64,000 bases of DNA from an uncultured Planctomycetaceae bacterium (GTDB taxonomy: Bacteria > Planctomycetota > Planctomycetia > Gemmatales > Gemmataceae), in NCBI GenBank assembly GCA_963823075.1, contig CAWGKE010000001.1, positions 1,395,868 to 1,459,867 of the forward strand, in the 5' to 3' direction. The position numbers and the translations under genes are program-made. The notes under the pieces are model-generated. The model was given only the letters and a program-made list of their open reading frames with translations, did not search any database and was not told the origin of the DNA. Shown piece by piece: positions 4,277-64,000 of this stretch (its first letter is position 1; every line of letters begins with the position of its first letter).

Positions 4277-4690
4277 ATGGCCGACCGTTTGCAGACGACG
4301 CCGACCAGCGCCGAACCGTCGGTGACGACGCTGCTCAGCGGCATCGTCACCGACGCGCAAGAGCTGATTAATCAGCAGTTGCAGCTGTTCAAACACGAAC
4401 TCAAAGACGACATGAAACGGGCCCAGGAGGGGTTGCCCGTCCTGGGCATGGGCGTCAGCATCGCGGTGGCGGCCGTCTTCCTGCTTGGCATAACGGTCGC
4501 CCTCTTGCTCAGCTGGGCGATCCCGGCCCTCCCCTGGTGGGGGAGCTTTGCCATAGTAACGGTCGTCTTCGGCGTGGCGGGCTGCGTCCTGCTGTATTTC
4601 GCCAAGAAAAACCTGGAGTCGCTTCCCATGAGCCGTGAGGCCATGAAAGCGACTGAGGAGAACGTCGAATGGTTAACGAAACCGAAGTAA
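4277..4690 (+). CDS. YqjE/Holin-X-like (DUF1469 / Phage_holin_3_6 family) membrane protein
   Basis: 137 aa with two TM helices. This is the usual partner of DUF883 genes (the yqjD-yqjE-yqjK arrangement). Confidence 0.65.
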   Translation: MADRLQTTPTSAEPSVTTLLSGIVTDAQELINQQLQLFKHELKDDMKRAQEGLPVLGMGVSIAVAAVFLLGITVALLLSWAIPALPWWGSFAIVTVVFGVAGCVLLYFAKKNLESLPMSREAMKATEENVEWLTKPK

Positions 4691-28948: not shown

Positions 28949-30001
28949 TCACTTCTTGAGCGTCCCCCGCCACTCGCCGTCGAGTTCCTGGAGCGTCTTG
29001 CCCGTGAGATCCTTGAAGAGGTCGTCGGAGTAATCCCCCTTCCGCATGTGGACGTTGAGCTTGCGGACCAACTCCTTGTCATACTTTTCGGACACGTAAT
29101 TCAGGAACGTCGCCGTGACGCGGTAGCTGCCGTCGTAGTGGGCCTTGTCGGGATCGACCGGCCCCGCCTTGCCCGGCTCGTACTTGAAGAAGCGCTCGTA
29201 GTCGGCGACGCCCTCGACCAGCCAGCCCGGGTTGCGGACGCCGCGGAGGCCCTGGATCGTGTGGACGGTTTCGTGGACCATCGCCCCGAAGTCGTCGGGG
29301 TGCGATTTGAAATACTTCACGGACCCCGTAATGTGGTCGCCGCCGGTCGCCGCAACGCCCCGGTAGCGGTTCTTGAGGGTCATGGTGACGACGCGGGACG
29401 GTTTCCAGCCGTCGCTCTTGAGGTCGTCGCAGAGCAGCGGATATTCGCGCTCGCAGATGCGGGCGGCCTTGTCCGCCCATTCCTTCATCTCCGGCGCGTC
29501 GGACACGTCCACCACGAACTCGACGGGGTACTGGAAGACCGTCACGGCCGGGTCCGAATCGACCGCGATCTCGTCGATCGCCAGCGGATGTTTGAGGTCT
29601 TCCGTGGGCCGAATGCGGATCGCCTGGATCATGCGGCCGTCGAACTTGGCGGTGGCGATGCCGTCCGCGAATATCCCGGCGTCCTCGAAGGATTTGCCGT
29701 CGGCGGAGACCTGGAGCGTCCCTGCCTCCAGCTCGTCGCCGCCCTTCGGTCGGCCGGTGGAGACGCAGACCGACTTCACGGCGACCGGCCTGTCGAAGAC
29801 GAGGCTGAAGTGGTCGGCGGCGGTCGGGTTTTTTTCCGACGCGAAATAGGTGTCAAGATCGCCGTCGAAGGCGAGCTGGCGAATCTGTTCGCCCGCCGTG
29901 GTCAGCGTGGTTTCGACGGTCGCGGCGACCGGCTCCGCGGCGCGCGACGCCGCGGCCCACAGCAGCGGCGCCGCGAGGATGAGGGGGGTCCAACGTCGCA
30001 T
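28949..30001 (-). CDS. Secreted protein with an N-terminal F5/8-type C (discoidin) domain and a C-terminal BSP-family putative zinc metallopeptidase
   Basis: Signal peptide. The discoidin region is inferred. The C-terminal module has an HExxH (HETVHTIQ) motif, as in the basic-secretory-protein / plant-and-bacterial peptidase family. Confidence 0.55.
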   Translation of the reverse strand: MRRWTPLILAAPLLWAAASRAAEPVAATVETTLTTAGEQIRQLAFDGDLDTYFASEKNPTAADHFSLVFDRPVAVKSVCVSTGRPKGGDELEAGTLQVSADGKSFEDAGIFADGIATAKFDGRMIQAIRIRPTEDLKHPLAIDEIAVDSDPAVTVFQYPVEFVVDVSDAPEMKEWADKAARICEREYPLLCDDLKSDGWKPSRVVTMTLKNRYRGVAATGGDHITGSVKYFKSHPDDFGAMVHETVHTIQGLRGVRNPGWLVEGVADYERFFKYEPGKAGPVDPDKAHYDGSYRVTATFLNYVSEKYDKELVRKLNVHMRKGDYSDDLFKDLTGKTLQELDGEWRGTLKK

Positions 30002-36559: not shown

Positions 36560-37216
36560 ATGACTGACGCGGAGTGGACGGCGTGCGATAATTCTGAGCG
36601 GATGCTAGAGTTTCTGCGCGGCCAGGTCAACGGCCGCAAGATACGTTTGTTCGGCTGCGCCTGTTGCCGTCGCATCTGGCGCCGGCTAACGGACGAGCGG
36701 AGCCGCAAGGCCGTCGAGGCAGCGGAATTATATGCCGACGGATTCATCGCTCACGCGGACCTGAAGCAAGCCTGGGCCGAGGCGTCGGGGGCGATCCAGG
36801 GTTCGCTTGTTACGCATTCCGGTCAGAGCATTGCGACGGTCGCGGCAAGGAGCGCCGCCGACCCCGCCCGTGCCTCCATTGCGGAAGCCGTTGCGCTTGC
36901 GGCCCGAGCAGGCGTCTATTCCCAGCAGCATTTTGAGGCTGAAAAGGCGGCGCAGGCAGCCTTCCTGCGCGATCTATTGGGCAACCCCTTCCGACCCGCT
37001 AACATCGACCTCTCCTGGTTGGCCTGGAACGACGGCGCAATCCCCAAGATGGCGCAGTCCATCTACGACGGGCGCTCCTTCGACCTCCTGCCGCTGCTCG
37101 CCGACGCCCTCGAAGACGCCGGCTGCACCGACGCCGCCATCCTCGGCCATTGCCGAGGCGGCGGCATACACGTCCGCGGCTGCTGGGTGGTGGATTTGTT
37201 GCTCGGGAAGGAGTGA
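36560..37216 (+). CDS. Hypothetical protein (Cys-rich N-terminus, family conserved in Planctomycetes)
   Basis: 218 aa. MTDAEWTACDN..RKIRLFGCACCRRIW. No firm domain assignment. Confidence 0.45.
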   Translation: MTDAEWTACDNSERMLEFLRGQVNGRKIRLFGCACCRRIWRRLTDERSRKAVEAAELYADGFIAHADLKQAWAEASGAIQGSLVTHSGQSIATVAARSAADPARASIAEAVALAARAGVYSQQHFEAEKAAQAAFLRDLLGNPFRPANIDLSWLAWNDGAIPKMAQSIYDGRSFDLLPLLADALEDAGCTDAAILGHCRGGGIHVRGCWVVDLLLGKE

Positions 37217-37222
37217 GGCCGT

Positions 37223-38470
37223 CTATTTGAGATGATGCAGATCGAGATCGAGGCGAAACGAGTCCAGCAGGTGCAGCGAGGCAGCGTCCACGGCGAAGAA
37301 TTCGCCCAGAAGCTCGGCGGCCGTGACCGTGAGACGCAAGAAGCCGTAGCAATGGTCGGCGTAGGCCATGACCCGCAGCTGGTGCTTGCGGGGCAGCACG
37401 TAACCGGGCGGCGGAGCGGCGTCGAAGGGCACGGTGCGCGGCGTCGTCTCCCGCCCGGCGGCGTCTTCCCACATGCCCTCCAGCGCGGTGTGACCGCCGC
37501 AGCCGGCGATCAGGTGCGGGATCTCCTAGCCGTCGTCGTAGCGGTACGTCAGCCGCTGGTAAAGGTGCGCGTGGGCGGACAGCACCGCGTCGGGCCGTCG
37601 GCCGGCCTCCTTGCAGGCGCGCCAGCACCTCCGCCAGCGGCCGCGCCGCCGCGGCGTTGCTCGTCGGACCCAGCGTCGGGTCACCCCGCACGGTGAAATT
37701 GGCCGCCCCGGAGAACGGCGGGTAATGCACCACGAGCAGCACGGCCCGCCGTGACGAACCCTTCCGGTCGCGTCCCCGCACGTCCTTGAGCTGGGCCGTC
37801 AGCCAATCGTATTGCGGCCGGCTGTCGGGGTGCGCCGGGTCGTCGAGAAGGCCGCCGTTGCAGACGTTCGCGTACAGGCCGATGAAGTAGGCCACGGGCG
37901 TGTCCAGCCGCCAGCAGACGTAGGGTTGGGTCACGGCCGGGCGGTCGTCCGTTTCGTTGTCCGGCGATTTATCCTTTTTCGGAGCGCAGAACTGGTCGAG
38001 AAAGTGGAGGATCGAGGAGCGGTCGCCGTGCAAGGACTGTTTGCCGCAGTGGTTGCCCGGCACGGCGAAGATCGACCGCGGGTAGGCGGTGTACGGGGCG
38101 AAGAACTGTTCGTTGTACATGCGCCGCTGGTCGGCGCGGGCCTGGTCGGCCCGGTTCTCGTCCTTGTAGGCGACGTCGCCGAGGTGGAAGAAAAACGACG
38201 CCTTGGCCGCCGGATCGCCGAGATGCCCCGGGTCGCGCGCCTGGGCCGCCATGGCGGCGGCGACGGCGTCCTGCGGCCGGTGGTCGGGGAAATCGCCGGT
38301 GCAGCCGACCGCGTGGAAGGTCAGGACGCCGGATCGCTTGACGCGGTCGTGCTCGCGGCGGTCCACGTCCTTCAGCCGGAGAATGAAATCCGCCGGCTTG
38401 CGGGGCGGCTCGCGCGGCACGTCGGTCCAGACGCCGTGTTCCACGCCCGGTTCGATGCTCGGGACGTCCG
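37223..38470 (-). pseudogene. Calcineurin-like metallophosphoesterase, disrupted (in-frame TAG at 37527-37529 plus a frameshift at about 37620-37700)
   Basis: Metallophosphoesterase motifs GDFPD, HLGDVAY and VPGNHCG lie in the 36999..38699 frame. The C-terminal end continues in ORF 37223..37474 after ...YDDG*EIPHLIAGCGG. Confidence 0.6.
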
Positions 38471-38592
38471 CCAATTGGTCCAAGCGATCACCCACCTTTC
38501 CGTGCGTCGGCGCCCGCGCACGTTCTACCGTGGATGATGCGGAGGGGCAAGTCGGCGGGGCGGCCCTCCTGGAAGAAGCGGCGCGGGCGCGT

Positions 38593-39021
38593 TCACTTGC
38601 CGGGATCGGCGGGTGGGCTCTTCTTATCGGCGTCGGCCGGTACAGCCGTGTCGTCTTTGGCGCCGGCCGCGATCCAGTCGCGCACTTTGGCGATCTCATC
38701 GGCCTTGGGTTGCGCCGCCTTGCCGGGAGGCATCGGCTTGCCGTGGCCGGTCATCACGCCGAGCAGCCGGCTGTCGTCGGGCTTCTCCGGCACGACCAGC
38801 GTGCCGCGCCGGCCTTTCTTCGTCAGGTCCGCGAACGTCTCCACGCTGACGCCGGCCCGGCCCCGGTTGTCGTTGTGACACTTCATGCAGTAGTTGGCCA
38901 GGAATGGCTTGACGTCCTTGCTGTAGGTCGGCGCCGGCGGCGGATCGTCCGCGGCCGACGCCGCGCCCGCCCACCCCAGCGACGCCAGCGCCGCCGCTAT
39001 ACCCGCCCATGCTCGCCGCAT
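38593..39021 (-). CDS. Planctomycete cytochrome c domain (PSCyt1) protein, secreted
   Basis: Start MRRAWAGIAAALASLGWAGAASA. Heme motif CMKCH embedded in the PSCyt1-like context VKPFLANYCMKCHN...LLGVMTGHGKPMPPGK. Confidence 0.7.
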   Translation of the reverse strand: MRRAWAGIAAALASLGWAGAASAADDPPPAPTYSKDVKPFLANYCMKCHNDNRGRAGVSVETFADLTKKGRRGTLVVPEKPDDSRLLGVMTGHGKPMPPGKAAQPKADEIAKVRDWIAAGAKDDTAVPADADKKSPPADPGK

Positions 39022-39232
39022 TCGCGTCTCCCTGGATCGCAGGAACCGTACACGCGGCGCAGGGCCGCTGATGGAATTTACCTCATGGAACCCCGAAAGC
39101 GGTTCCGGGTATCGGCCCCGGCCGGTGGATTCGTACAATGTCTGAGGCGTGCGCGGCCGGTTTTTTGCCAGAGCGGCAAAGGGCCGCTGCGTCATGATGC
39201 AAATTCTTTACAGGAAAGGGCCTACGCGAAAT

Positions 39233-39305
39233 GCGCCCGTAGCTCAGGGGATAGAGCATCGGTTTCCTAAACCGAGGGTCGCAGGTTCAAATCCTGCCGG
39301 GCGTA
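39233..39305 (+). tRNA. tRNA-Arg(CCT)
   Basis: Cloverleaf: acceptor GCGCCCG/CGGGCGT, D-arm GCTCAGGGGATAGAGC, anticodon loop TTCCTAA, T-arm GCAGGTTCAAATCCTGC. No encoded CCA. Confidence 0.85.
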
Positions 39306-39467
39306 GTGAAACCCACGAGCAGCGAAACCGGCTGCCCGCGGGTTTTCGTTTCATGCGCGCCTTTGTCCGCCCGCTTGCTCCGACAGATCGCGTTTTCCCA
39401 CAAGGTTTTGCGACTTCGCGGTCACCCTACCGCTCCTCTTCTGATACACAAACCCGGTAGTTCTGTC

Positions 39468-40069
39468 TCATTTCGCCTGGCGTGACAGTCGCTTTTCCAG
39501 CAGCGTTTTGACCTTGCCGCGCATGGTCTGGAAGTAGCAGAGGCTGGCCCGGAGCGACTGCTTGAGGTCGGCCAAGGTGTCGAACAGCCGGTTGTGCGTC
39601 GCCCGTCGCCGCAGCTTCTTCCAGAAACGCTCGATCGGGTTCAACGGGGGGCTATAACTGGGCAGACGCTTGAACTTCAGATGCGGGTACTCCGCCAGCG
39701 CCTGGTCCACCGGCTTGCCCCGGCGCCACGGCGCGGTGTCGATCCGCAGCACCACTTCCGGGTGCTTGTCCCGCGGGTACACCCGACCGACGTGGCGCAG
39801 GTGGTCCGCGAACGCCTCTTGCAGGCGCCGCGTCTTGCTCTGGCCCGTCCTCTTCTGGGCGGCCTTGGGGCTTTCCAGGGTGTTGCTGTGGACCGCCGCG
39901 CTGAGCAGGTTCACCACGGCGAAGACGTAGAGCAGGTCCTTGCAGTCGCGCGTCCCGACCGTCGGCCGGTGTCCTTTGACCCCCCGCGTTGCACCCAGCG
40001 TTGGCGCCATCGGGAAGCGGGCCTCGTCCTGACTCAGCAAGACGATTTCACCCGCCGTCGCTTTTTTTC
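39468..40069 (-). pseudogene. IS630-family transposase DDE-domain fragment (3' part of a copy split by later insertions)
   Basis: YSPPLNPIERFWKKLRRRA motif. The N-terminal residues of the annotated ORF read through the TIR of the adjacent intact IS630. It pairs with orfA at 41480-41992. Confidence 0.7.
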
Positions 40070-41239
40070 CTAGTGCAGGGCCAAGCAAGGTCTTGCCTGT
40101 GCGCAGCTGGAAGCGAACAATGAGGTATGAAACCACCCATCTTTGTTCGCACGCTCAGCGCCGCCGAACGGCTGCGGTTGCAGGCGGGGCGGCGCGCTGC
40201 CGACGCCTTTACCGTCCGCCGTTGCCAGATTCTCCTGGCCAGCGCCGCCGGTCTGCGGCCGCCGCAGATCGCCCGCAACTTGGGCTGCGCCGCGCGCACC
40301 GTTCACTACGCCCTGCACGCCTTCCGGCGCGAGGGACTGGACTGTCTCCAGGAGAAATCCTCTCGGCCGCATTCGGCCCGGCCGTTCCTGGACCAACGCC
40401 ACGCCGACGCCCTGAAGGACCTGCTGCATCACAGTCCCCGTCTGTTCGGCAAACCCACCGGCCTGTGGACCCTGGAGCTGCTCGCCGAGGTCTGCCACGG
40501 CAAGGGCTGGACCCCCCGGCGACTCAGCGGCGAAGCCGTTCGCCTGGCCCTGAAACGCCTGAACATCGGCTGGCGGCGTGCCAAGCACTGGATCACCAGC
40601 CCCGACCCGGCCTACGCGCGAAAGAAAGAAGCCCGCGATCGCTTGATCCGTCTGGTCGAGAGTCACCCGGACTGGGTCTTGGGTTTCCGGGACGAGACCT
40701 GGTGGAGCCGCCTCGCCCTGCCGCGTTGTCGCGCCTGGACCGGCGCCGAACCGCTCCGCCTGGTGGAACGGAACACCGACCGCACCGATCCGGACCCCAA
40801 GGCGCTGTGCTGCTACGGCTTGCTGCGGCAGGACACGGACCAGATGCTGCTGCGTTTCGTCGAGGGTCGGCCGGTGAGTCAGGTCACCGAGGACTACCTG
40901 GCCTGGGTGTGCGAGCAGCTGGCTGCGGAGGGCAAGAAGGCGCTGCTGCTGGTCTGGGACAACGCCTCCTGGCACGCCAGTAAGCGGGTGCGGTCCTGGA
41001 TCAAGGATCACAACCGACGGGCCAAGGCGGAGGGTGGGGTGCGGATCCTCGCCTGCCCGTTGCCGATCAAGGCGCCGTGGCTCAACGCGATCGAGCCGAA
41101 GTGGGTCCACGGCAAGAAGGCCATCGTGGAGCCGGATCGGAAGCTGACGGCGCAGGAGACCAAGGAGCGCGTCTGTCTGTATTACGGCTGCGAGCAAGTG
41201 GAACCCCTTGAGCAAAAGGCCGCTTGATCCTGCACTAGG
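40069..41239 (+). mobile_element. IS630-family insertion sequence, apparently intact
   Basis: TIRs CCTAGTGCAGGGCC... at 40069 and ...GATCCTGCACTAGG at 41239. It carries a 366-aa transposase. Inserted after a T7 run. Confidence 0.8.
40127..41227 (+). CDS. IS630-family transposase
   Basis: N-terminal HTH/wHTH. DDE region DETWWS...WDNASWH...LPIKAPWLNAIE. Confidence 0.85.
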   Translation: MKPPIFVRTLSAAERLRLQAGRRAADAFTVRRCQILLASAAGLRPPQIARNLGCAARTVHYALHAFRREGLDCLQEKSSRPHSARPFLDQRHADALKDLLHHSPRLFGKPTGLWTLELLAEVCHGKGWTPRRLSGEAVRLALKRLNIGWRRAKHWITSPDPAYARKKEARDRLIRLVESHPDWVLGFRDETWWSRLALPRCRAWTGAEPLRLVERNTDRTDPDPKALCCYGLLRQDTDQMLLRFVEGRPVSQVTEDYLAWVCEQLAAEGKKALLLVWDNASWHASKRVRSWIKDHNRRAKAEGGVRILACPLPIKAPWLNAIEPKWVHGKKAIVEPDRKLTAQETKERVCLYYGCEQVEPLEQKAA

Positions 41240-41483
41240 ATGGCAAACTTAACTTGAGAGGCCCCGAAAACGGCCTGTTCTTGAACTGGGCGGCCCAGGA
41301 AAACGCCAGAAATCGCTTGTCCGCCGAGGGTCTCAAGTTGAGTTTGCCGTCCTAGTTTTTTCCTAGGATGGCAAACTTAACTTGAGAGGCCCCGAAAACG
41401 GCCTGTTCTTGAACTGGGCGGCCCAGGAAAACGCCAGAAATCGCTTGTCCGCCGAGGGTCTCAAGTTGAGTTTGCCGTCCTAG
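41236..41483. mobile_element. Tandem pair of ~120-bp palindromic MITEs (TIR CTAGGAYGGCAAACTTAACTTGAGA)
   Basis: Copies at 41236-41355 and 41363-41483, each internally inverted-repeat and separated by a T-run. Two more copies at 43096-43340. Confidence 0.85.
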
Positions 41484-41992
41484 TTTTTTTTTAACTCGGC
41501 AATGTCTTGGCGGGCTTGGGCTTGTTTCTCGGGGTTGCCGCGCAGGTAGCGGTAGGTCGGGCGATACAGGCGGATATCGATCTTGGCACAGAAACGCTGC
41601 ACGGCGCTGCGGGATGTCTGGATGCCTCTGGTCTTGAGCAGATAGTCGGCCAACTCCTCATGGGTCCAGTTGACCCGGTCCAGACCGCACGCGGCCGGCC
41701 CGTTGATGACCCAGCGTTTGACCTCGCCGGCCAGGTGGGTCGGGATTTTGGCTGGCGCCCCCTTCGGTTTGCGGGGGCGCAGACCGTCCAGACCCCGATC
41801 GAGGTAGACGTTGAGCCAGCGTTGGACGGTGCGTGGGGTGATGGCCAGGTCCTGGGCGATGTCCTGGTGGGGTCGATGGCGGCAGGCCAAGCGGATGATG
41901 GGGATGCGATCGCGGTACTTCGGGTCGGTCTCGTGGCGGAAGGCCTGGTCGAGACGTTGGCTTTCCTCCTGGGGCAGTCGGATGCGAATCAC
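41480..41992 (-). pseudogene. IS630-family transposase N-terminal (HTH) fragment, truncated by the MITE insertion
   Basis: 170 aa, homologous to the N-terminal half of the intact IS630 transposase. The stop TAG lies within the MITE TIR. Confidence 0.7.
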
Positions 41993-42080
41993 GTCAGGTC
42001 TGGTTCCTCCTTCGGGTCACTCGACCCCATTCATTCTACGCAACCAGACAAGCCTATCGGGTTTGTGTATCAGTAGAAAG

Positions 42081-42168
42081 CGGAGAGGGAGGGATTCGAA
42101 CCCTCGGTAGACTTGTCGTCCTCACCGGTTTTCGAGACCGGCCCGATCGGCCGCTCCGGCACCTCTCC
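42081..42168 (-). tRNA. tRNA-Ser(CGA)
   Basis: Acceptor GGAGAGG/CCTCTCC. Anticodon loop CTCGAAA. Long variable arm. T-arm GAGGGTTCGAATCCCTC. Confidence 0.8.
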
Positions 42169-42521
42169 GAGAAACCGCACAAACCCGTCCTCCCCCGCAT
42201 TCTAGCAGCCCAGCCCCCTGCCGACAATTTCCCCTCCTCCCCGCCGCTTGCATCCGGCTCGAAGGACGTGGGACAGGATTCCGATCCTGTCCGGTTGGGT
42301 CAGGATTGGAATCCTGACCCACGGCCCAATAGTGTTCGGCACGGCGTTTGAGAGGGACGTAAGTGGCGATCCCCCCGTGGTTAACGGCAAATGAGCGGGT
42401 GAGCCTCGACCAATTGTTCCAATGGGCACCCATCAGCGCAACTCTCAATTGCCATTAGACTTATGCGCTTCCTCAAATCGTGTGCCGAACACTATTGCCC
42501 ACGGCCCCATGTCGTGCTCCT

Positions 42522-43906
42522 AAGCAAGTACGCAAAAGTGTTTTGACAAAGTTCATTTGAGCCAGAAGGTGTCGCTGAACACGCCGGACGTATGCAGAGC
42601 CTCTTGGTTCGACAAGCCGCCCAGGTAGTCGAGGAAGCGGTTCACCTGTTCCTCGATCGGCTCGTATTGCTTGTTGGCGCTGATCACGTCCTTGCCCTGG
42701 CCCCACAGCGTATCCATCGGGTTCAACTCCGGGGACCTCTTGGGCAGCCACAGCAGCGTCATCCCCTCCGCCTTGGCCAGCGATGCCTTGGCCGTGTGGC
42801 TGCGATTCTCATCCACGAGCATGGCCACGTGCCAGCCCCGGTAACGCCCGCGTACTTCCTCCAGGAACGCCTGGAAGTCGATGCTCTGCCCCTTCGCCCT
42901 CGGCAGGAAGAGCCGCGCCCCGGTGCGCAGGTTCATCGCCCCGAAGACGACCCGCCGCGCGTTCCAGCCGCTCAGCAGCACCGGCGCGGTTTCCCCTCGC
43001 CGCGCCCACCCCGCCCGCAGAGGCGGGAAGAGCAGCAGGTCGGTTTCGTCCTGGGCCAGCACCACGCTTCGCCTGGGCAAGGCCAGGATCTGCCGCTTGA
43101 TCCGCCGTTTTTTTCTAGGACGGCAAACTTAACTTGAGACCCCGGCGGAAAAGCGATTTCTGGCGTTTTCCTGGGCGGCCCAGTCAAGAAAAGGCCGTTT
43201 TCCCGGGGCTCTCAAGTTAAGTTTGCCATCCTAGTTTTTTTCTAGGATGGCAAACTTAACTTGAGACCCCGGCGGACAAGCGATTTCTGGCGTTTTCCTG
43301 GGCCGCCCAGTAAGAACAGGCCGTTTTCGGGGCCTCTCAAGTTGAGTTTGCCGTCCTAGTTTTTTCTCGCGCAGCGGGTCCGGCGCGAGGGCGTAACGCG
43401 GCCGCTTCCAAACGAAGTCCCACTCGGCCAGCTGCCGGCGGATGGTGTCGCAGGAGGCCTCCCGGCTCGTGGCGACGGCCAGGGCCTCGCGGAGCAGCGG
43501 CGCCGTCCAGCTTACGTGGGGGAAGCCGACGTCCGGGGGGGAGCAGTCCAGCAGCGACTCCAGCAGTTCCAGGTCGTCCTCGTCCAGCAGTCGGGGTCGC
43601 CCGGGGCGTTCGCCCTCCGCAAGAGTATCGGGCGGAGGCGTCGTGGCGAAGGCGGCCAGCCAGTTGTGGACCGTCTGGCGGGTCACGCCGAGCATCCGGG
43701 CGATGTCGGCGGCAGACCGGCCTTGGTCGAATTCGAGAACGGCCAGAGTGCGGCGGAAGAGGCGAACGTCGCAGGCCTCCCGCAGCTGTCGCCGCAATCG
43801 CCGCCGTTGCCAGGATGTCAGATGGAGTCGATCCATGGTACTTCCCCCTCTACCCGAGAGGATACCAATAAACCGGGTGTCAAATTACTTTTGCGTACCT
43901 GCTTAC
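42522..43906 (-). mobile_element. IS630-family element whose transposase gene is split by a tandem MITE pair
   Basis: TIRs AAGCA(A/G)GTACGCAAAAGT..TTTGAC at both ends. orfA 43380-43836 (HTH) and orfB 42553-43080 (DDE: SQDE.., LPKRSPELNPMD) are separated by the MITEs at 43096-43340. Confidence 0.7.
43096..43340. mobile_element. Tandem pair of ~120-bp palindromic MITEs (same family as 41236-41483, opposite orientation)
   Basis: Copies at 43096-43215 and 43223-43340, flanked and separated by T-runs. Confidence 0.85.
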
Positions 43907-44819
43907 AGGCTCTGACAAAACCTACTTTTGGCATGGAATTTGCGCTATGGCACAATGGCCCTTCTTTCTCAGAGGTTGGTGTCATGGCGAATGCACATTT
44001 ACCCGATGCCTTCTATGACCTGGTTTCGCACCATCTGCCCCCCGAAAAGCCTGTCGGTCCCAAGGGCGGTCGCCCACCAATCCCCCACCGCATAGCCCTG
44101 AAAGTGATCTGGTTCGTCCTCGTCTCCGGCTGCCGGTGGGAAGACGTGCCGCACGAGATGGGCTGCTCCGGACGCACCGCCCACCGGCGGCTGCCTTGTG
44201 GGAGGAACTGGGCGTCTGGGACCGTCTGCACGCCGATCTGCTCCGCCTGCTGCGGCAGGACGACAAGCTCGACCCCGCTCTGGTCATCGTAGACGGCGTG
44301 ATCGTGCGGGCCTTCGGCGGCGGCGAGGACACCGGCCCCAGCCCCGTGGACCGGGCGAAAAAAGGCTCCAAACACACCTTGATGGTGGATCGACACGGTG
44401 TGCCGCTGGCCATCCACACGGTGGCAGCCAACGCCAGCGATCACGGGCAGATCATCCCCATCGTGCTGGACTTCCCGCAGGTCGGCGGCAAAGTGGGCCG
44501 ACCGAAGGAACTACCCGACGAGTTGTACGCCGATGCGGGTTACGACAGCGAGGCGACCCGCTGGCTGCTGGCCTGGCTGGGGATCGAGGCCAAGATCAAC
44601 AAGCGGCGGTCGGTGCACGGGAGCGGGTTGGGCAAGGTACGCTGGGTAGTGGAGCGGACCATCAGTTGGCTCAAGGGACTGAGGCGAATGCGCATCCGCT
44701 ACGACCGCCTCAAGGTGGTCCAGGAGGCGTGGAATACGCTGGCAGCGAGTGTCATTTGCTTTCGCATTTGGCATCATGACTTCGCTGTTGCCTCATAGGG
44801 TTTTGTCAGAGCCTGTTAG
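43907..44819 (+). mobile_element. IS5-family (IS427/ISL2-like) insertion sequence
   Basis: TIRs ACAGGCTCTGACAAAACC / GGTTTTGTCAGAGCCTGT. The transposase is split over two frames (43985 to about 44195, then 44136-44798) with the DDE region DGVIVRA...YADAGYDSE. Confidence 0.75.
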
Positions 44820-46318
44820 TATTACAGCGCAGGGCGCTTTGCTCTTCTACGCGAAGGGAGAAAACGGTACAAGACGAACTCCTTCGCCCGCAGTCCGCCG
44901 TAGGAGGGACCGTTCATGGACGGGCAACAATTGCGGGCGCTCAAGCCTGAGTTGGATCGTTTTTTGGACCGGTACGCGCCCCTGTTCGGCCGTGACGAGA
45001 ATCAGGCCCATGCACGCCGCTTCGTTCAAGGACTGCTGCACAAGGGTGAACGTCGCAACATCGAGAACATCGCCGAGGCTCTCGACGGCGGTCCCGTGCG
45101 TTCCTTGCAGGCGTTTGTGACCACCGGCGCCTGGCACGACCAGGCCCTGCTGGCCGAGTTGCGCCGGGACGTGCTGGCGGTTCTCGCGGACGAGGACGCC
45201 GTCTGGAACTCGGACGAGACCGGCTTCCCCAAGAAGGGCGCCAAGTCGGTGGGGGTCAAGCGGCAATACTCCGGCACGCTCGGTCGCACGGATAATTGTC
45301 AGATCGGCGTGTTCGCCAACTACTGCTCGTCCAAGGGGCACACCTTCATGGACCGCCGCTTATTCCTGCCGGAGGAGTGGGCCGACGACGCGGGGCGACG
45401 CGCCGAGGCGGGCGTCCCCGAGGACGTGCTCTTTCGCACCAAACCAGCGTTGGCGCTGGAGATGGCAGCCAGGCCGTCGCCGAAGGCATCCCCTTCCGCT
45501 GGGTCGGCGGCGACAGTGTCTACGGCGACAACCCGACCTTCGTGCAGGGCGTGCGTGCGTTGGGCAAGTGGTATGTGTTGGACATCGCCTGCGACACGCG
45601 GGTATGGACCGAGCCACCCCAGGTCATCCCGGCGGCAGAGCGGCCGCGTCCGCGGCGTGGCCGTCCACCCACCACGCCGTTGGTGGTCGGCGAGCGGCGA
45701 CGTGTGGACGAGATCGCGGCGGCCCTTGCCGGCGACGGCCTGGCGACGCGTCGTCGTGGGCGAAGGCAGTCAGGGGCCGCGAATGTACGAATACGCTGAG
45801 GTGGCCGTGTGGTTGTGTGAGGACGAGTTGCCGGGACCGCCCGAGCGTTTGTTGGTGCGGCGTTCGCTGGGGCAGTCGGCGGAGTGGAAGTACCACCGCG
45901 CTCACGCGGCGGCGACCGTGTCGCTGGAGAAGCTGGCGCAGGTGCGTGGCACGCGCTGGACGATCGAGGAAGACATCCAGTGTGGCAAGGGGGAGTGTGG
46001 CCTGGACGAGTACGAGACGCGTGGCTGGGTGGGCTGGCACCATCACACGGCGTTGTCGCTGTTGGCGTTGGCGTTCTTGGTGCTCCAGAAGCAGCGGTTG
46101 GGGGAAAAAAAGAGCCGCAGATGACCGTCCCGGAAGTGCGCGCGTTGCTGACGCATCTGCTGGAAGTGCGCGTGTGGGACGACGACGACATCCTGGGGTG
46201 GTCGGAGTGGCGGCGCGAACGCAACCGCCGGGCCTCGGAAAGTCATCGCAAGCGGCGGCTCGCCGAACTGCGGCCGCCGCGAAGTAAGAAAAAGAAGCCT
46301 GCGCTGTAATATTAGTTC
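44820..46318 (+). mobile_element. IS701-family insertion sequence; transposase carries three frameshifts
   Basis: TIRs TAGTATTACAGCGCAGG / CCTGCGCTGTAATATTAG. Transposase 44916-46309 with RQYSGTLGRTDNCQIGVF and WTIEEDIQCGKGECGLDEY. Frame switches near 45470 and 45740, and at the A7 run near 46115. Confidence 0.75.
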
Positions 46319-48078: not shown

Positions 48079-48349
48079 TTTCCCGGACCGACGCCGCCCC
48101 TGATTGCCCTGGATGGCGAGGGCCAGCCGTAGGAATTGGCTTCGTTCGGCAAAACCATCCGTCGGGGCCGGACGAACGCCGTTGCAACCCCCGGCCGGAC
48201 GGCGGTAAGCGGGAAACGGCAAGAAAACCGCATGTTTTCCCGTGACGGGCGCCCGGAGGCGGCCGCCGGCCTCGGCGGCGGGATCGCCGGAAAATGTCCA
48301 AAATGCTGATGATTTAGGAAAAAAATGCACGGGTCGGAGGTCACACGTC

Positions 48350-49062: not shown

Positions 49063-49297
49063 AATACTACGGGCCCTATGCAAATGAGGCTGAGGTTCTC
49101 GCGCCCTACGAAATACCGCTGGAGGACATCGCTGGCTATCAACAAGTTGGCCCGGGAGAGAACCTTACGGGCCCCGTCACACCATTCCCATATTTCAACC
49201 CATGAAGACTTCGCATTCACTAGAGTTGGTCAGCCCTGAAGGGTCTAGTCGATGCGAACTTCAGCATACGACGAAACCTCCTTGGCGCTTACTGTTC

Positions 49298-49801
49298 ATG
49301 CACAAGACGCTAGGAAACCTACTTTGCGAGTCTAGCGATCTATTTGACGCACTCTGTAAGTTGCGTTTGGTCCTAGAGAGGCACAATTATAAGATTCTGT
49401 GCAACGGCGGCCGCATCGACGCCTGGCCATCAAACATGGCCAGGGACATGGGAGGCGGGAAAAAGGTCTATATTACTCAGATTGGTAAGCGTGCCCAGTT
49501 TGACGACTTGGTGCCATTATTTGGACCGACAGAAGGCGTGCTAGTTGCCACTGTGCAGGTACAGATCGCGCACCATCGGGAGTGGATAAGAAGCATCATG
49601 AGCGAATTGAATACTCCACCGCCAGAAGCGCTTAAGGAAGCGAAGCTCCGTCCCAACGGATGGGTCTATAAGATTGAGGGTGACTACGGGCCGCAAGACA
49701 GCGTGCCTGTCGAAGCGATTGTTGGAGCATGGAAAGTCGATTTCGAAGGCAACATTGTTGGAGACTTTGTCCCCAACCCAAAGTATAAACCGAGACAGTA
49801 A
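49298..49801 (+). CDS. Hypothetical protein in low-GC (~48%) DNA, likely horizontally acquired
   Basis: ATG at 49298 (MHKTLGNLL). Clean codon structure. Flanked by the R1/R2 repeats. Confidence 0.5.
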   Translation: MHKTLGNLLCESSDLFDALCKLRLVLERHNYKILCNGGRIDAWPSNMARDMGGGKKVYITQIGKRAQFDDLVPLFGPTEGVLVATVQVQIAHHREWIRSIMSELNTPPPEALKEAKLRPNGWVYKIEGDYGPQDSVPVEAIVGAWKVDFEGNIVGDFVPNPKYKPRQ

Positions 49802-60865: not shown

Positions 60866-62608
60866 GTCCATTCCCGTTATTGCGGCGCGGCGGCCGGTCG
60901 GCGCAAGCGGCCGCTGCCCGCCGCGCGGGGATGCGGCCGCGGTCGCGCCCAGTACCGCTCCGCCCGTTCGTCCTCGCTCAAGTAGGCTGCACGCACCTGG
61001 AGGACGGTCTCGGCCCGCGCGCAGCCAGAACTTCTCGCTCCCCTACACCCGACGGTTCAACTGCTTGATGACGCTCTCCACCGGCGCACTACTGATCGGC
61101 GGCAGCCGCGTACTCGGGGTAGTTAAGGCGGCCCCGGTTGTTCTCCACGTAGCCCAGCGTGTCCGCCGCCACCCGCCGTGGCTCGTCCTCCGCCGCATTC
61201 GCCGGCGGCTCCCCCAGACGCTTGCACACCGCCCGCAGCCCGCCCAGCAACAGCAGCACCTTCCCTGACCAGGCCCAGCACAGCCATTGCGTGTACAACG
61301 CCCACGCCGCCTCCGTGCCCTTGCCCTCCGCCGCGCACGCCCCCGCATACAGATGCGCTAACAGGTGTAAAAAGGCCAAAATGCCGAGGAACCCAGCCGC
61401 CAGCAGATGAAACTCGCTCACTGCCCAGACCGTTTCAGCCGTCGCCCAGGCAAGCCTTCCCTTGACCCGATCCAGACCACGCCGGTGAACCTCGGCCGCC
61501 ACGTGCCAGCCGAACGGCTCGTGTCCGCCGAGGTCGGCAACCGTTCGCACCAACCGCTGCGGTCGCCTGGTCCGACCCGGCCGCCGCCGCCGACGCTTCT
61601 TGGGAGGCGGCGGCGAGGGCCGGTCGGCACGGCCCACGCTTTTGCCGCTTGCGACCGCAATTCCGCCGCCAGTCGCGCCACCCGTTGGCGGTCCAGGAAC
61701 TTCGGCGGCGGCTGCGGTTGCGGATCGCTCCGAGCTTCCCGGGAAGCGTAGGTCTGACAACAGGCCACCTTGTCCTCGCGCCAGGCCGGGTCGGTTACCC
61801 CGCGTCCCGCCTCCGCGGCGCGCGTTTGATAGCGACCCCCATCCAGCATCACAGCCGCGACCACGGGCGCCTTCCCGTAGTCGCGTGCCAGACGGTTCTC
61901 CTGCAACGCCCGGACGTCGGCGTCTCGCTGTTGTTCCCACTCCCCGCCGATCCGTTCGGTCAGACGCTGCAGATGCGTCGGACTGATCGCCCACTTGGCC
62001 AGTGCCCGAAGGTCCTCGCTGGCGTCCTTAAACGAGGCCGCCTTGGCGGCCTGACGAACCGCCTGGCGAAGCAGGGTGGGACTATAGCCTTCCGTCCCCA
62101 ACGCCAGTTTGTGGTCCAGAGGGAAAAAAAGAGACCCGACAGGTCTGGCAGTGCCACTGTTCGCGGCTGAAGGTCACTTCCCCCGCGTCGCTGTGCAGTT
62201 GCCGCCGCGGCAGGGGTTCCCCCGCAGGAGTATGCCGCCGAGCCGGTCGGCCGCACCGCGGACAAAGGATCGGTTGGCCGTCCTCCGGTCGCACGGCCGG
62301 GTCGTCCGCGATGTCCTGCTCCAGGAGCCAGGCGGCCAGCTCACGGGTAAGAGAGCAGGCGCGGCCTTCCCGCTGAGAGAACGTGACCGGGGGTGGATTC
62401 GGCCCGCCGTCGAAATAGAGATCGAAGGCGGCTCCCGCCTGTTCGAGCCACTGCTGGCGGAGTTGTTCGCGGCCGGTGTTCACGCTGCGTGAAGATTCGT
62501 TCATAGCTGCCTGCCGGGGATTAAGGAACAACGTGTCTCGCTTTCCTGGTTATCTCATACCGGAGGCGCAGCTGCAATAACGGGAATGGACCCCAGTCGC
62601 GGTCGGTT
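60866..62608 (-). mobile_element. ISKra4-like insertion sequence with a frameshifted transposase
   Basis: TIRs GGGGTCCATTCCCGTTATTGC / GCAATAACGGGAATGGACCCC. The transposase spans three frames (62531 down to 61089). N-terminal zinc finger CPRCG..CQTCR. Confidence 0.65.
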
Positions 62609-63875: not shown

Positions 63876-64000
63876 CGTCGCAGCCCTCCTGACGTGGCGG
63901 GGCGTCGTGCCCCAAGCCCTCCATCTCCCTTCACTCTACCCGGTGAATCCCTGCCGTGCGGCGACGCGGCGCCGCGCCGCCGATAAAAAAACGACGCCGA

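Follow-up and report, generated by a model that had tools for sequence, protein, structure and literature searches.

A family of miniature inverted-repeat transposable elements with a preference for A:T homopolymers, found in an insertion sequence nest of a Planctomycetaceae bacterium

In the 64-kb stretch of contig CAWGKE010000001.1 from an uncultured Planctomycetaceae bacterium that we analysed (the window; coordinates are window positions unless another locus is named), a nest of insertion sequences (IS; 39232-46315) contains two IS630-family transposase genes that are each split by a tandem pair of repeats of about 120 bp. The question is how the same kind of repeat, in the same paired arrangement, came to lie inside two genes whose products are so distantly related, the three IS630 transposases of the nest sharing only 23-25% pairwise identity. 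An original prediction from this DNA had recognised the elements, their inverted repeats and the pairs, and had proposed either repeated insertion into a junction that each insertion regenerates or a regulatory cassette built into the IS630 subfamily. [quoted passage not shown] Repeated insertion proved to be half right, the site having been misidentified, and the cassette was wrong; among the observations, a common codon position, full palindromicity of the repeats and an end shared with a further IS630 copy did not hold.

Structure of the MITEs and of their sites in two IS630 genes

The terminal inverted repeat (TIR) CTAGGAYGGCAAACTTAACTTGAGA occurred eight times in the 64 kb with at most one mismatch, where none was expected by chance, and these matches form four MITEs of 118-121 bp, all within two IS630 genes and none elsewhere in the window, which share the TIR CTAGGAYGGCAAACT. 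The first host, IS630-1 (39441-42073, minus strand), is a dead copy bounded by the TIRs CTGATACACAAACCCGG and CCGGGTTTGTGTATCAG, in which a MITE pair together with a further element, IS630-2, separates the 170-amino acid (aa) orfA, the helix-turn-helix (HTH) DNA-binding part (41480-41992, minus), from the catalytic DDE_3 part in the orfB frame (39468-40061, minus; start KKATAGEIVLLSQDEARF). The second, IS630-3 (42521-43905 including the flanking TA, minus strand; TIR AGCAAGTACGCAAAAGT), is likewise a dead copy, in which the second pair separates the HTH part, orfA (43366-43836, minus; ending PDPLREKK, with the called open reading frame (ORF) of 201 aa continuing into a MITE), from the catalytic part in the orfB frame (42553-43107, minus; RRIKRQILALPRRSVVLAQDETD). 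Both elements were delimited by their inverted repeats and by a match of the rejoined ORF to NF033545.

In IS630-1, MITE 1a (41236-41355, plus strand; 121 bp when C40070, the first base of the split MITE, and one TA are counted) and MITE 1b (41363-41483, plus; identical to 1a over 121 nt and found as a direct repeat, 99% over 128 nt) have their TIRs abutted at a 7-nt spacer, TTTTTTC (41356-41362). In IS630-3, the abutted TIRs of MITE 3a (43115-43234, minus; 120 bp, with the interior opposite to that of 1a and 1b on the plus strand) and MITE 3b (43242-43359, minus; 118 bp) enclose the spacer TTTTTTT (43235-43241), and 3b is a mosaic, with its interior as in 3a and the TIR variants of the opposite orientation. 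The tandem periods are 128 and 127 nt, and the pairs are oppositely oriented relative to the two transposase genes. The flanks are T6-T9 runs: for IS630-1, T7 with one extra C (40062-40069), which is one copy of the duplicated A:T run (G-A7-GCGACGG on the sense strand), and the retained run T9 (41484-41492; A9 on the sense strand), where orfA ends as AELKKN and a stop; for IS630-3, T7 (43108-43114) and T6 (43360-43365), both copies of the duplicated run. The predicted TIR, size of about 120 bp, tandem pairing, opposite orientations and T-run flanks were thus all borne out, but the term palindromic suits only the TIRs of about 25 nt and a short central palindrome, the remainder of the element not being self-complementary.

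The family as a whole measures 118-131 bp, has stops in most frames and is non-coding. Its TIRs, 22-25 nt long, begin with CTAGGATGGCAAACT (also written CTAGGATGGCAAAC; family search motif CTAGGAYGGCAAAC), and their outer 15 nt were invariant across 10 aligned copies belonging to three subfamilies, which share the outer TIR, have unrelated interiors and show co-variation of the left and right inner TIR. Such a combination of shared TIRs and unrelated interiors is typical of MITE families that related transposases serve. The TIRs of the resident IS630 elements (CTGATACAC in IS630-1, GTGCAGG in IS630-2 and AGCAAGTACG in IS630-3) are unrelated to the MITE TIR. Since every copy, in every context, starts with CTAGG and ends with CCTAG, the CTAG belongs to the MITE. 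The element is a MITE by every testable criterion except an identified parent: a search with a single TIR, allowing at most two mismatches, matched only MITEs in all the loci retrieved. A lone TIR at L008:888 was considered as the end of an autonomous element and rejected, as it belongs to a MITE with a 1-nt insertion in its other TIR. An intrinsic terminator (hairpin plus T-run) was not called by a simple scan, whose loop and stem limits were exceeded; as the run is A on the transposase sense strand, any such terminator would face antisense.

Comparison of filled and empty sites shows what was duplicated. On the sense strand, the filled sites read GAGTT-A9-MITE-G-A6-MITE-G-A7-GCGACGG in IS630-1 and GCGCGAG-A6-MITE-A7-MITE-A7-CGGCGG in IS630-3, the latter both in the window and in L001; in L010, which like L001 is another assembly of a related strain, the IS630-3 site reads A7-MITE-A7-MITE-g-A7. 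An extra C:G base pair lies at window positions 40069 and 41362 and at L010:1704, and is absent from other copies of the same subfamily. Uninterrupted versions exist for both elements. An intact relative of IS630-1 with the same TIRs (L002:9921-11140) has the empty site TT-A9-GCGGCCGCGGGTGAAATC (TT-A9-GCGG) with orfB in the -1 frame, and for IS630-3 six contigs, each from a different sample (L011 plus L012-L016, the latter five from JGI), have the empty site GAGCGCGAG-A7-CGCCGC (GAG-A7-CGCCGC) with orfB in the +1 frame. Neither A9 nor G-A7-C contains CTAG, and the IS630-3 site contains no TA at all. On this comparison the target is an A:T homopolymer, duplicated as a 7-8-bp target site duplication (TSD); the duplication is made up of 7-8 bp of the run, not of the TA that had been suggested. 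We take a TSD of this length to exclude IS630, IS5, IS701 and IS3-type enzymes as the mover, which does not by itself name the mover's family.

Relatives of the two transposases indicate what these runs may be for. The rejoined IS630-1 transposase had 618 relatives at E<=1e-30, of which the best 120 were 68-80% identical and almost all 365-388 aa long; the 16 that we aligned were contiguous across the site, reading AELK-x-KA-x-AGEIVLLSQDE (fused form ELKxKAxAGE). The closest relatives, with orfA at least 90% identical, have two ORFs, with an orfA of 178 aa that ends in ELKKKRRRVKSSC before the stop, a tail that corresponds to the orfB leader of the window in another frame. In a cluster of 12 orfA sequences, seven members of 178 aa (from JGI, ENA, Logan and NCBI) end in KKKR(R/P)(R/Q)VKSSC. 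For IS630-3, fused relatives (60-67% identical) read PDPEREKKRRIRRQI across the site (REKKRRIRRQ), the closest relatives (75-82%) again have two ORFs, and ahead of the run, on its upstream side, the orfB frame stays open. Frameshifting has been documented for the IS1, IS3, IS5 and IS630 families (PMC5009743), and A/T runs of about nine serve as transcriptional-slippage sites in IS elements (PMC6211511). As in those systems, A9 (-1) and A7 (+1) lie between an HTH orfA and a DDE orfB, and at both runs two overlapping ORFs, DNA-binding and catalytic, meet at a conserved homopolymer. A9 and A7 are therefore the predicted recoding runs of IS630-1 and IS630-3, and because the run joins the DNA-binding and catalytic reading frames in relatives, both MITE pairs would lie in the recoding run of their element. 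The runs are conserved in close relatives and more distant relatives are fused; with its orfB in +1, the A7 arrangement differs from the classical -1 heptamer. They are the target of the MITE and not the finding itself.

The two pairs had been thought to occupy the same relative codon position. In a profile-profile alignment, however, the KK of IS630-3 (residues 158-159) stands opposite K156-Q157 of IS630-1, whose own KK (168-169) lies about 11 codons beyond, both within the linker between HTH and DDE domains, so the claim is wrong. Run length and orfB frame also differ between the two sites. By this alignment the sites are analogous, not homologous, and the feature that they have in common is the A-run. 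The insertions split IS630-1 and IS630-3 between their HTH and DDE domains, leaving both dead as autonomous elements.

Other copies and the preference for homopolymers

We scanned public genome and metagenome contigs with a pattern consisting only of the outer 14 nt of both TIRs, so that the flanks were not part of the query, and found seven loci, one in a metagenome-assembled genome (MAG) of Planctomycetaceae (L003) and six on metagenome contigs (L004-L009); L006 and L007 being one sequence, the independent sites number six. Exact 22-mer TIR scans of the genome and metagenome contig collections found none, nor did a scan of a viral contig collection for the TIR pattern. In non-IS or non-coding DNA, the MITE was flanked on the left and right by A7 and A7 (L003), T7 and T7 (L004) and T7 and T8 (L008); in an ISKra4-family transposase by T7 and T8 (L006); and in an IS3-type orfA by A7 and A7 (L009). 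The remaining copy, upstream of a methyltransferase gene (L005), has a clean non-homopolymer TSD of 8 bp, GCTATACT, on both sides. Runs of the A7/T7 type were thus present on both sides in five of the six independent sites (P about 3e-14, against a baseline of 0.14%, the share of positions that fall in runs of at least six A or T across these 88.6 kb of DNA).

The ISKra4 host (NF033572, E=1e-50) is one stretch across the junction. The L009 host matched HTH_Tnp_1 (E=1e-11), with the insertion between MELEVAKK and ASALL, presumably the position at which IS3 members carry their slippery heptamer. A six-frame search with MITE translations added two proteins from NCBI/ENA genomes (P0121 and P0122), in which the MITE is flanked by KEAKK and EKNRG and by GSFF and VFFHA, respectively, corresponding to A and T runs; these flanks showed no resemblance to IS630 transposase, and the N-terminal part of P0121, the only part scanned, had no Pfam match. 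On L008, two copies of one subfamily (888-1010 and 4293-4412) lie in inverted duplicates of the same flank and are not independent; their run lengths have drifted (A8 and A6 in one, T7 and T8 in the other), and one copy has a 1-nt TIR insertion.

Of the 10 known sites, eight lie outside IS630. The window contains 17 runs of at least six, six of which flank MITEs, and of the remainder a considerable part would be recoding runs of IS elements; unoccupied runs include 46105-46111 (A7, in the IS701 gene), 44358-44363 (A6G, in the IS5 gene), 29829-29835, 48319-48325, 62124-62130 and 63985-63991. The preference of the MITE is for A:T homopolymers and not for IS630 genes as such. The original prediction, which had coupled a poly-T/CTAG context with IS630 genes, was correct on the homopolymer, but CTAG is not the target and IS630 genes are not preferred as such.

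Origin of the insertions and of the pairs

The best explanation, which we consider probable, is a homopolymer-targeting MITE family that hits the recoding runs of IS elements in GC-rich Planctomycetes. A transposase acting in trans would insert the MITE into A:T homopolymers that measure some 7 bp or longer, and a staggered cut of 7-8 bp would duplicate the run as the TSD. At about 67% GC such runs are very rare, and selection would preserve several of them for recoding, by frameshift or transcriptional slippage, between the DNA-binding and catalytic halves of IS transposases; because they are scarce and several are kept there, the MITE would land in IS recoding runs repeatedly, and because the insertions are harmless to the host, they would persist. 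The run left on each side of the MITE would let a second copy arise, by re-insertion, slippage or head-to-tail dimerisation, and the CTAG ends of the MITE would then offer IS630 its preferred target.

Several observations weigh against this explanation or parts of it. The TSD length is ambiguous, 7 or 8 bp, as homopolymers hide the boundaries and several of the assemblies appear to be Nanopore-based, and a simple TSD does not account for the extra G:C base pair next to the CTAGGATGG end, which three out of eight compared IS630-borne copies have. The window, the 16 loci and the three collections scanned by TIR pattern yielded no autonomous element bearing these TIRs. On the L009 contig no IS3 orfB was found downstream, so that the frameshift-site call there rests on the position in orfA. 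A run is not sufficient for insertion, as the window has five further A7/T7 runs that are unoccupied, and only four sites come from the source lineage. Finally, pairs occur in all three IS630 occurrences and singles at the other eight sites, a split that a plain second-hit model does not predict.

These points have to be set against what the alternatives can and cannot accommodate. That the pair is a regulatory cassette built into the IS630 subfamily, such as a structured element that would govern transposase expression from the frameshift site, might be argued from its position exactly at the recoding run of both elements, its very stable fold (z = -8.7) and the importance of RNA structure beside a slippage run for a Roseiflexus IS630 (PMC6211511); yet IS630-1 has contiguous relatives without the MITE (the best 120 of 618), the run (A9 or A7) is bare in the closest relatives of either element, and the MITE is found in both orientations, introduces stops (KKN and a stop), sits about 11 codons apart in the two elements and belongs to a family also present in IS3-type, ISKra4 and non-IS DNA. 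The uninterrupted relatives, the use of either orientation and the non-homologous codons refute the cassette, which we regard as almost certainly wrong. Homing to some sequence that IS630 transposase genes have in common, with the homopolymer incidental, would agree with the window itself, in which both occupied runs are in IS630 genes and the five other A7/T7 runs (one of them in IS701) are empty, an arrangement with 1 chance in 21 under random hits on two of the seven runs; but there is no DNA similarity around the two sites, the proteins are 25% identical, eight of ten known sites are outside IS630, and a bias in persistence, insertions in dead-end IS DNA being neutral, accounts for the enrichment, making such homing very unlikely. 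An IS630/Tc1-type MITE inserting at the TA of CTAG, with the TTTTTTTCTAG junction as its site and TA as the sole duplication, is suggested by ends that read C-TA-GG and CC-TA-G and by the presence of three IS630 elements in the same nest. This model is highly improbable given that the empty sites (A9 and G-A7-C) lack CTAG and that of IS630-3 lacks TA, that C and G flank the TA at every copy and so are part of the element, that the copy at L005 has an 8-bp duplication, and that the MITE TIR resembles none of the three IS630 TIRs. Of the predicted repeated insertion into a regenerated site, then, the repetition and the duplicated run stand, but the TTTTTTTCTAG junction does not, the target being the A:T homopolymer and the CTAG the ends of the MITE.

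An assembly artefact of noisy long-read data could also be suspected. The window segment 37130-46314 is 1.2% different from L001, the alignment having 36 gap openings and many 1-nt indels, which break IS5, IS701 and other ORFs, and the IS630-3 MITEs of the window are a mosaic of two orientations that could come from polishing of a mixed population. Nevertheless, the same pair architecture is present in L001 and L010, the architecture and run lengths agree in all three assemblies, and on JGI contigs of other samples this MITE family recurs with flanks of a like kind, so that an artefact of structure or detail is extremely unlikely. The window looks like a noisier assembly than L001, and contig and MAG names (contig_N, np1212, MFD...) suggest that the assemblies are Nanopore-based; homopolymer lengths were accordingly taken as good to about +/-1. 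The 1-nt indels of the window break IS701 and IS5 ORFs that are intact in L001, and they also give rise to odd overlapping ORFs at 36999-38699.

The origin of the pairs is a separate matter. In each of the three IS630-borne occurrences (IS630-1; IS630-3 in the window and L001; IS630-3 in L010), two copies in the same orientation are separated by exactly 7 nt, a spacer that matches the local run in polarity, and the eight sites outside IS630 are single copies. Elements of the IS30, IS21, IS911 and IS256 types form (IS)2 head-to-tail dimers, or reactive junctions. The MITE pairs are like these dimers in their direct orientation, abutted inverted repeats and few bp of local flank between them, and unlike them in the 7-nt spacer and in the non-autonomous nature of the element; the resemblance is structural only. 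The pairs might be transposase-made dimers of this copy-out-paste-in kind, rather than second hits or products of replication slippage, as suggested by the three pairs out of three, the constant 7-nt spacing and the singles elsewhere; since in every case the polarity of the spacer is that of the local run, such dimers would have formed in situ. We nonetheless consider this origin rather unlikely: the same structure results when a second copy inserts into the regenerated run or when slippage occurs between the runs on either side, the same orientation in three of three cases has a chance probability of p = 0.125, the three occurrences are perhaps not independent, the mosaic 3b suggests in-situ inversion, and no transposase is known for the MITE. 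Re-insertion, slippage between runs and transposase-made head-to-tail dimers all fit the structure of the pairs.

L001 (F,F) and L010 (R,R), from the same metagenome, share one IS630-3 insertion, in whose run their pairs are oppositely oriented. Both MITEs of IS630-3 in the window have F interiors, the first copy with R-type TIR variants and the second with scattered R states, which suggests either in-situ inversion through the TIRs or the consensus of a mixed population. The opposite orientation in L010 was considered as proof of independent re-insertion, an argument weakened by the mosaic copy 3b. The dimer as the mobile unit was rejected, the spacer polarity following the local run and not the orientation of the MITE, as was gene conversion between IS630-1 and IS630-3, which share no DNA similarity.

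The IS nest and its wider meaning

The stack of mobile elements is bounded by tRNA-Arg(CCT) (39232-39306, plus strand; ARAGORN) and by a sugar-phosphate isomerase-like gene starting at 46312, with tRNA-Ser(CGA) (42080-42168, minus) in mid-stack, IS630-1 stopping 6 nt from the 3' end of this tRNA. ARAGORN, NCBIfam and Pfam bore out the predicted content of three IS630, one IS5 and one IS701 elements with both tRNAs in place. All three IS630 transposases have DDE_3 and HTH domains (HTH_23/29/32), and their NF033545 scores were 170 (IS630-1), 160 (IS630-3) and 133 (IS630-2) bits, the cut-off being 100. IS630-3 is flanked by TA at 42521-42522 and 43904-43905; a clear TA duplication was not seen for IS630-1. 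Abutting the end of IS630-3 is an IS5-family element (43906-44815, plus; TIR CAGGCTCTGACAAAAC, 3-bp duplication TTA; NF033580, 190 bits), followed by an IS701-family element (44820-46311, plus; inverted repeat, TIR TATTACAGCGCAGG, 4-bp duplication TTAG; NF033540, 311 bits), both scored on their L001 copies. Both used the TTA(G) made at the outer end of IS630-3 (43903-43905, 44816-44819 and 46312-46315), an end-to-end stacking at one 4-bp site.

IS630-2 (40073-41235, plus strand; TIRs GTGCAGGGCCAAGC and GCTTGATCCTGCAC) is intact, with an ORF of 366 aa at 40127-41227, and is inserted at the TA within the CTAG that ends MITE 1a, the TA being duplicated at 40071-40072 and 41236-41237 inside CCTAGG. 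CTAG is about eightfold depleted in the window (25 observed against about 195 expected), and nine of the 25 are at MITE ends. The IS630 family targets TA, preferentially in CTAG (PMC2170065, citing Tenzen & Ohtsubo 1991); because the MITE ends carry this preferred and locally depleted target, IS630-2 would have landed in a MITE terminus. The predicted second hit by an intact IS630 is therefore right, but its end is not shared with the MITE: IS630-2 has its own TIR, and CTAG is only its target. Six of the 25 CTAG sites lie in a low-GC gene at 49202-49801, in an interval (48-50 kb) of about 60% GC, and this gene looks horizontally acquired.

A second, unrelated MITE-like element of about 170 bp lies between tRNA-Ser and IS630-3 (42318-42507; also L010:2310-2500), with TIRs AATAGTGTTCGGCAC(G) and the flanking direct repeat CCCACGGCCC, and just upstream of it are two adjacent near-perfect hairpins, GGGACAGGATTCCGATCCTGTCC and GGTCAGGATTGGAATCCTGACC, at 42264-42326. 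L010 matches the window as far as the middle of tRNA-Ser (L010:2695 onward, window 42124) and then has other genes (including RAMA, DUF4268 and DUF1810), which suggests that alternative islands have integrated at tRNA-Ser; it also has an extra IS5 within orfA of IS630-3 (L010:396-1298). In the five JGI samples of L012-L016, the intact IS630-3 relative lies directly beside another IS (DDE_5, DDE_Tnp_1 or another IS630), and nests of this kind seem common in these organisms. With its IS630, IS5 and IS701 elements stacked or nested between two tRNA genes, the locus is like other nested IS hotspots by tRNA genes and unlike plain IS hotspots in its reciprocal provision of targets, in which the IS630 run would attract the MITE and the CTAG of the MITE would attract IS630.

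Among described families, MITEAba12 of Acinetobacter, mobilised in trans by ISAba12, has 113 bp, a 16-bp TIR, a 9-bp TSD and AT-rich targets (PMC6382973). The present family is like it in size class, TIRs, lack of coding capacity, multi-bp TSD, A+T-rich target bias and presence/absence polymorphism. It differs in its near-pure A or T homopolymer target, its unrelated TIR, the lack of a parent IS among the sequences searched, its recurrence in the recoding runs of other IS elements and its tandem pairs. Correia/RUP-type elements are MITEs derived from IS630/Tc1-mariner with a TA duplication; they too are short elements with TA next to the TIR and with IS630 in the same genome, whereas here 7-8 bp of the run make up the TSD, CTAG is absent from the empty sites and the TIRs match none of the three IS630 elements.

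A more far-reaching proposal would combine a transposase with target capture specific for A:T homopolymers, 7-nt-spaced pairs as its reactive-junction intermediates, a MITE that acts as a systematic parasite or silencer of IS630, IS3 and ISKra4, and MITE ends that seed IS630. We regard this combination as doubtful. If it were true, IS elements would be reduced to making just the DNA-binding orfA product, a possible repressor of their intact relatives, and a transposon-against-transposon network would shape the IS load of Planctomycetes.

Even so, a homopolymer-seeking MITE that, in GC-rich genomes, would preferentially destroy the recoding sites of other IS elements is of interest in itself; the searchable literature, which is incomplete, yielded nothing specific on homopolymer-targeting bacterial MITEs or on IS hits at frameshift sites. 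For annotation, the finding calls for caution, since two-ORF copies of IS630 or IS3 may be disrupted by a MITE and not regulated by frameshifting. Should the partner be found, the family would offer a candidate transposase-target system with homopolymer specificity. One simple rule may explain the nested IS hotspot: the MITE inserts into A:T homopolymers, and the run is duplicated.

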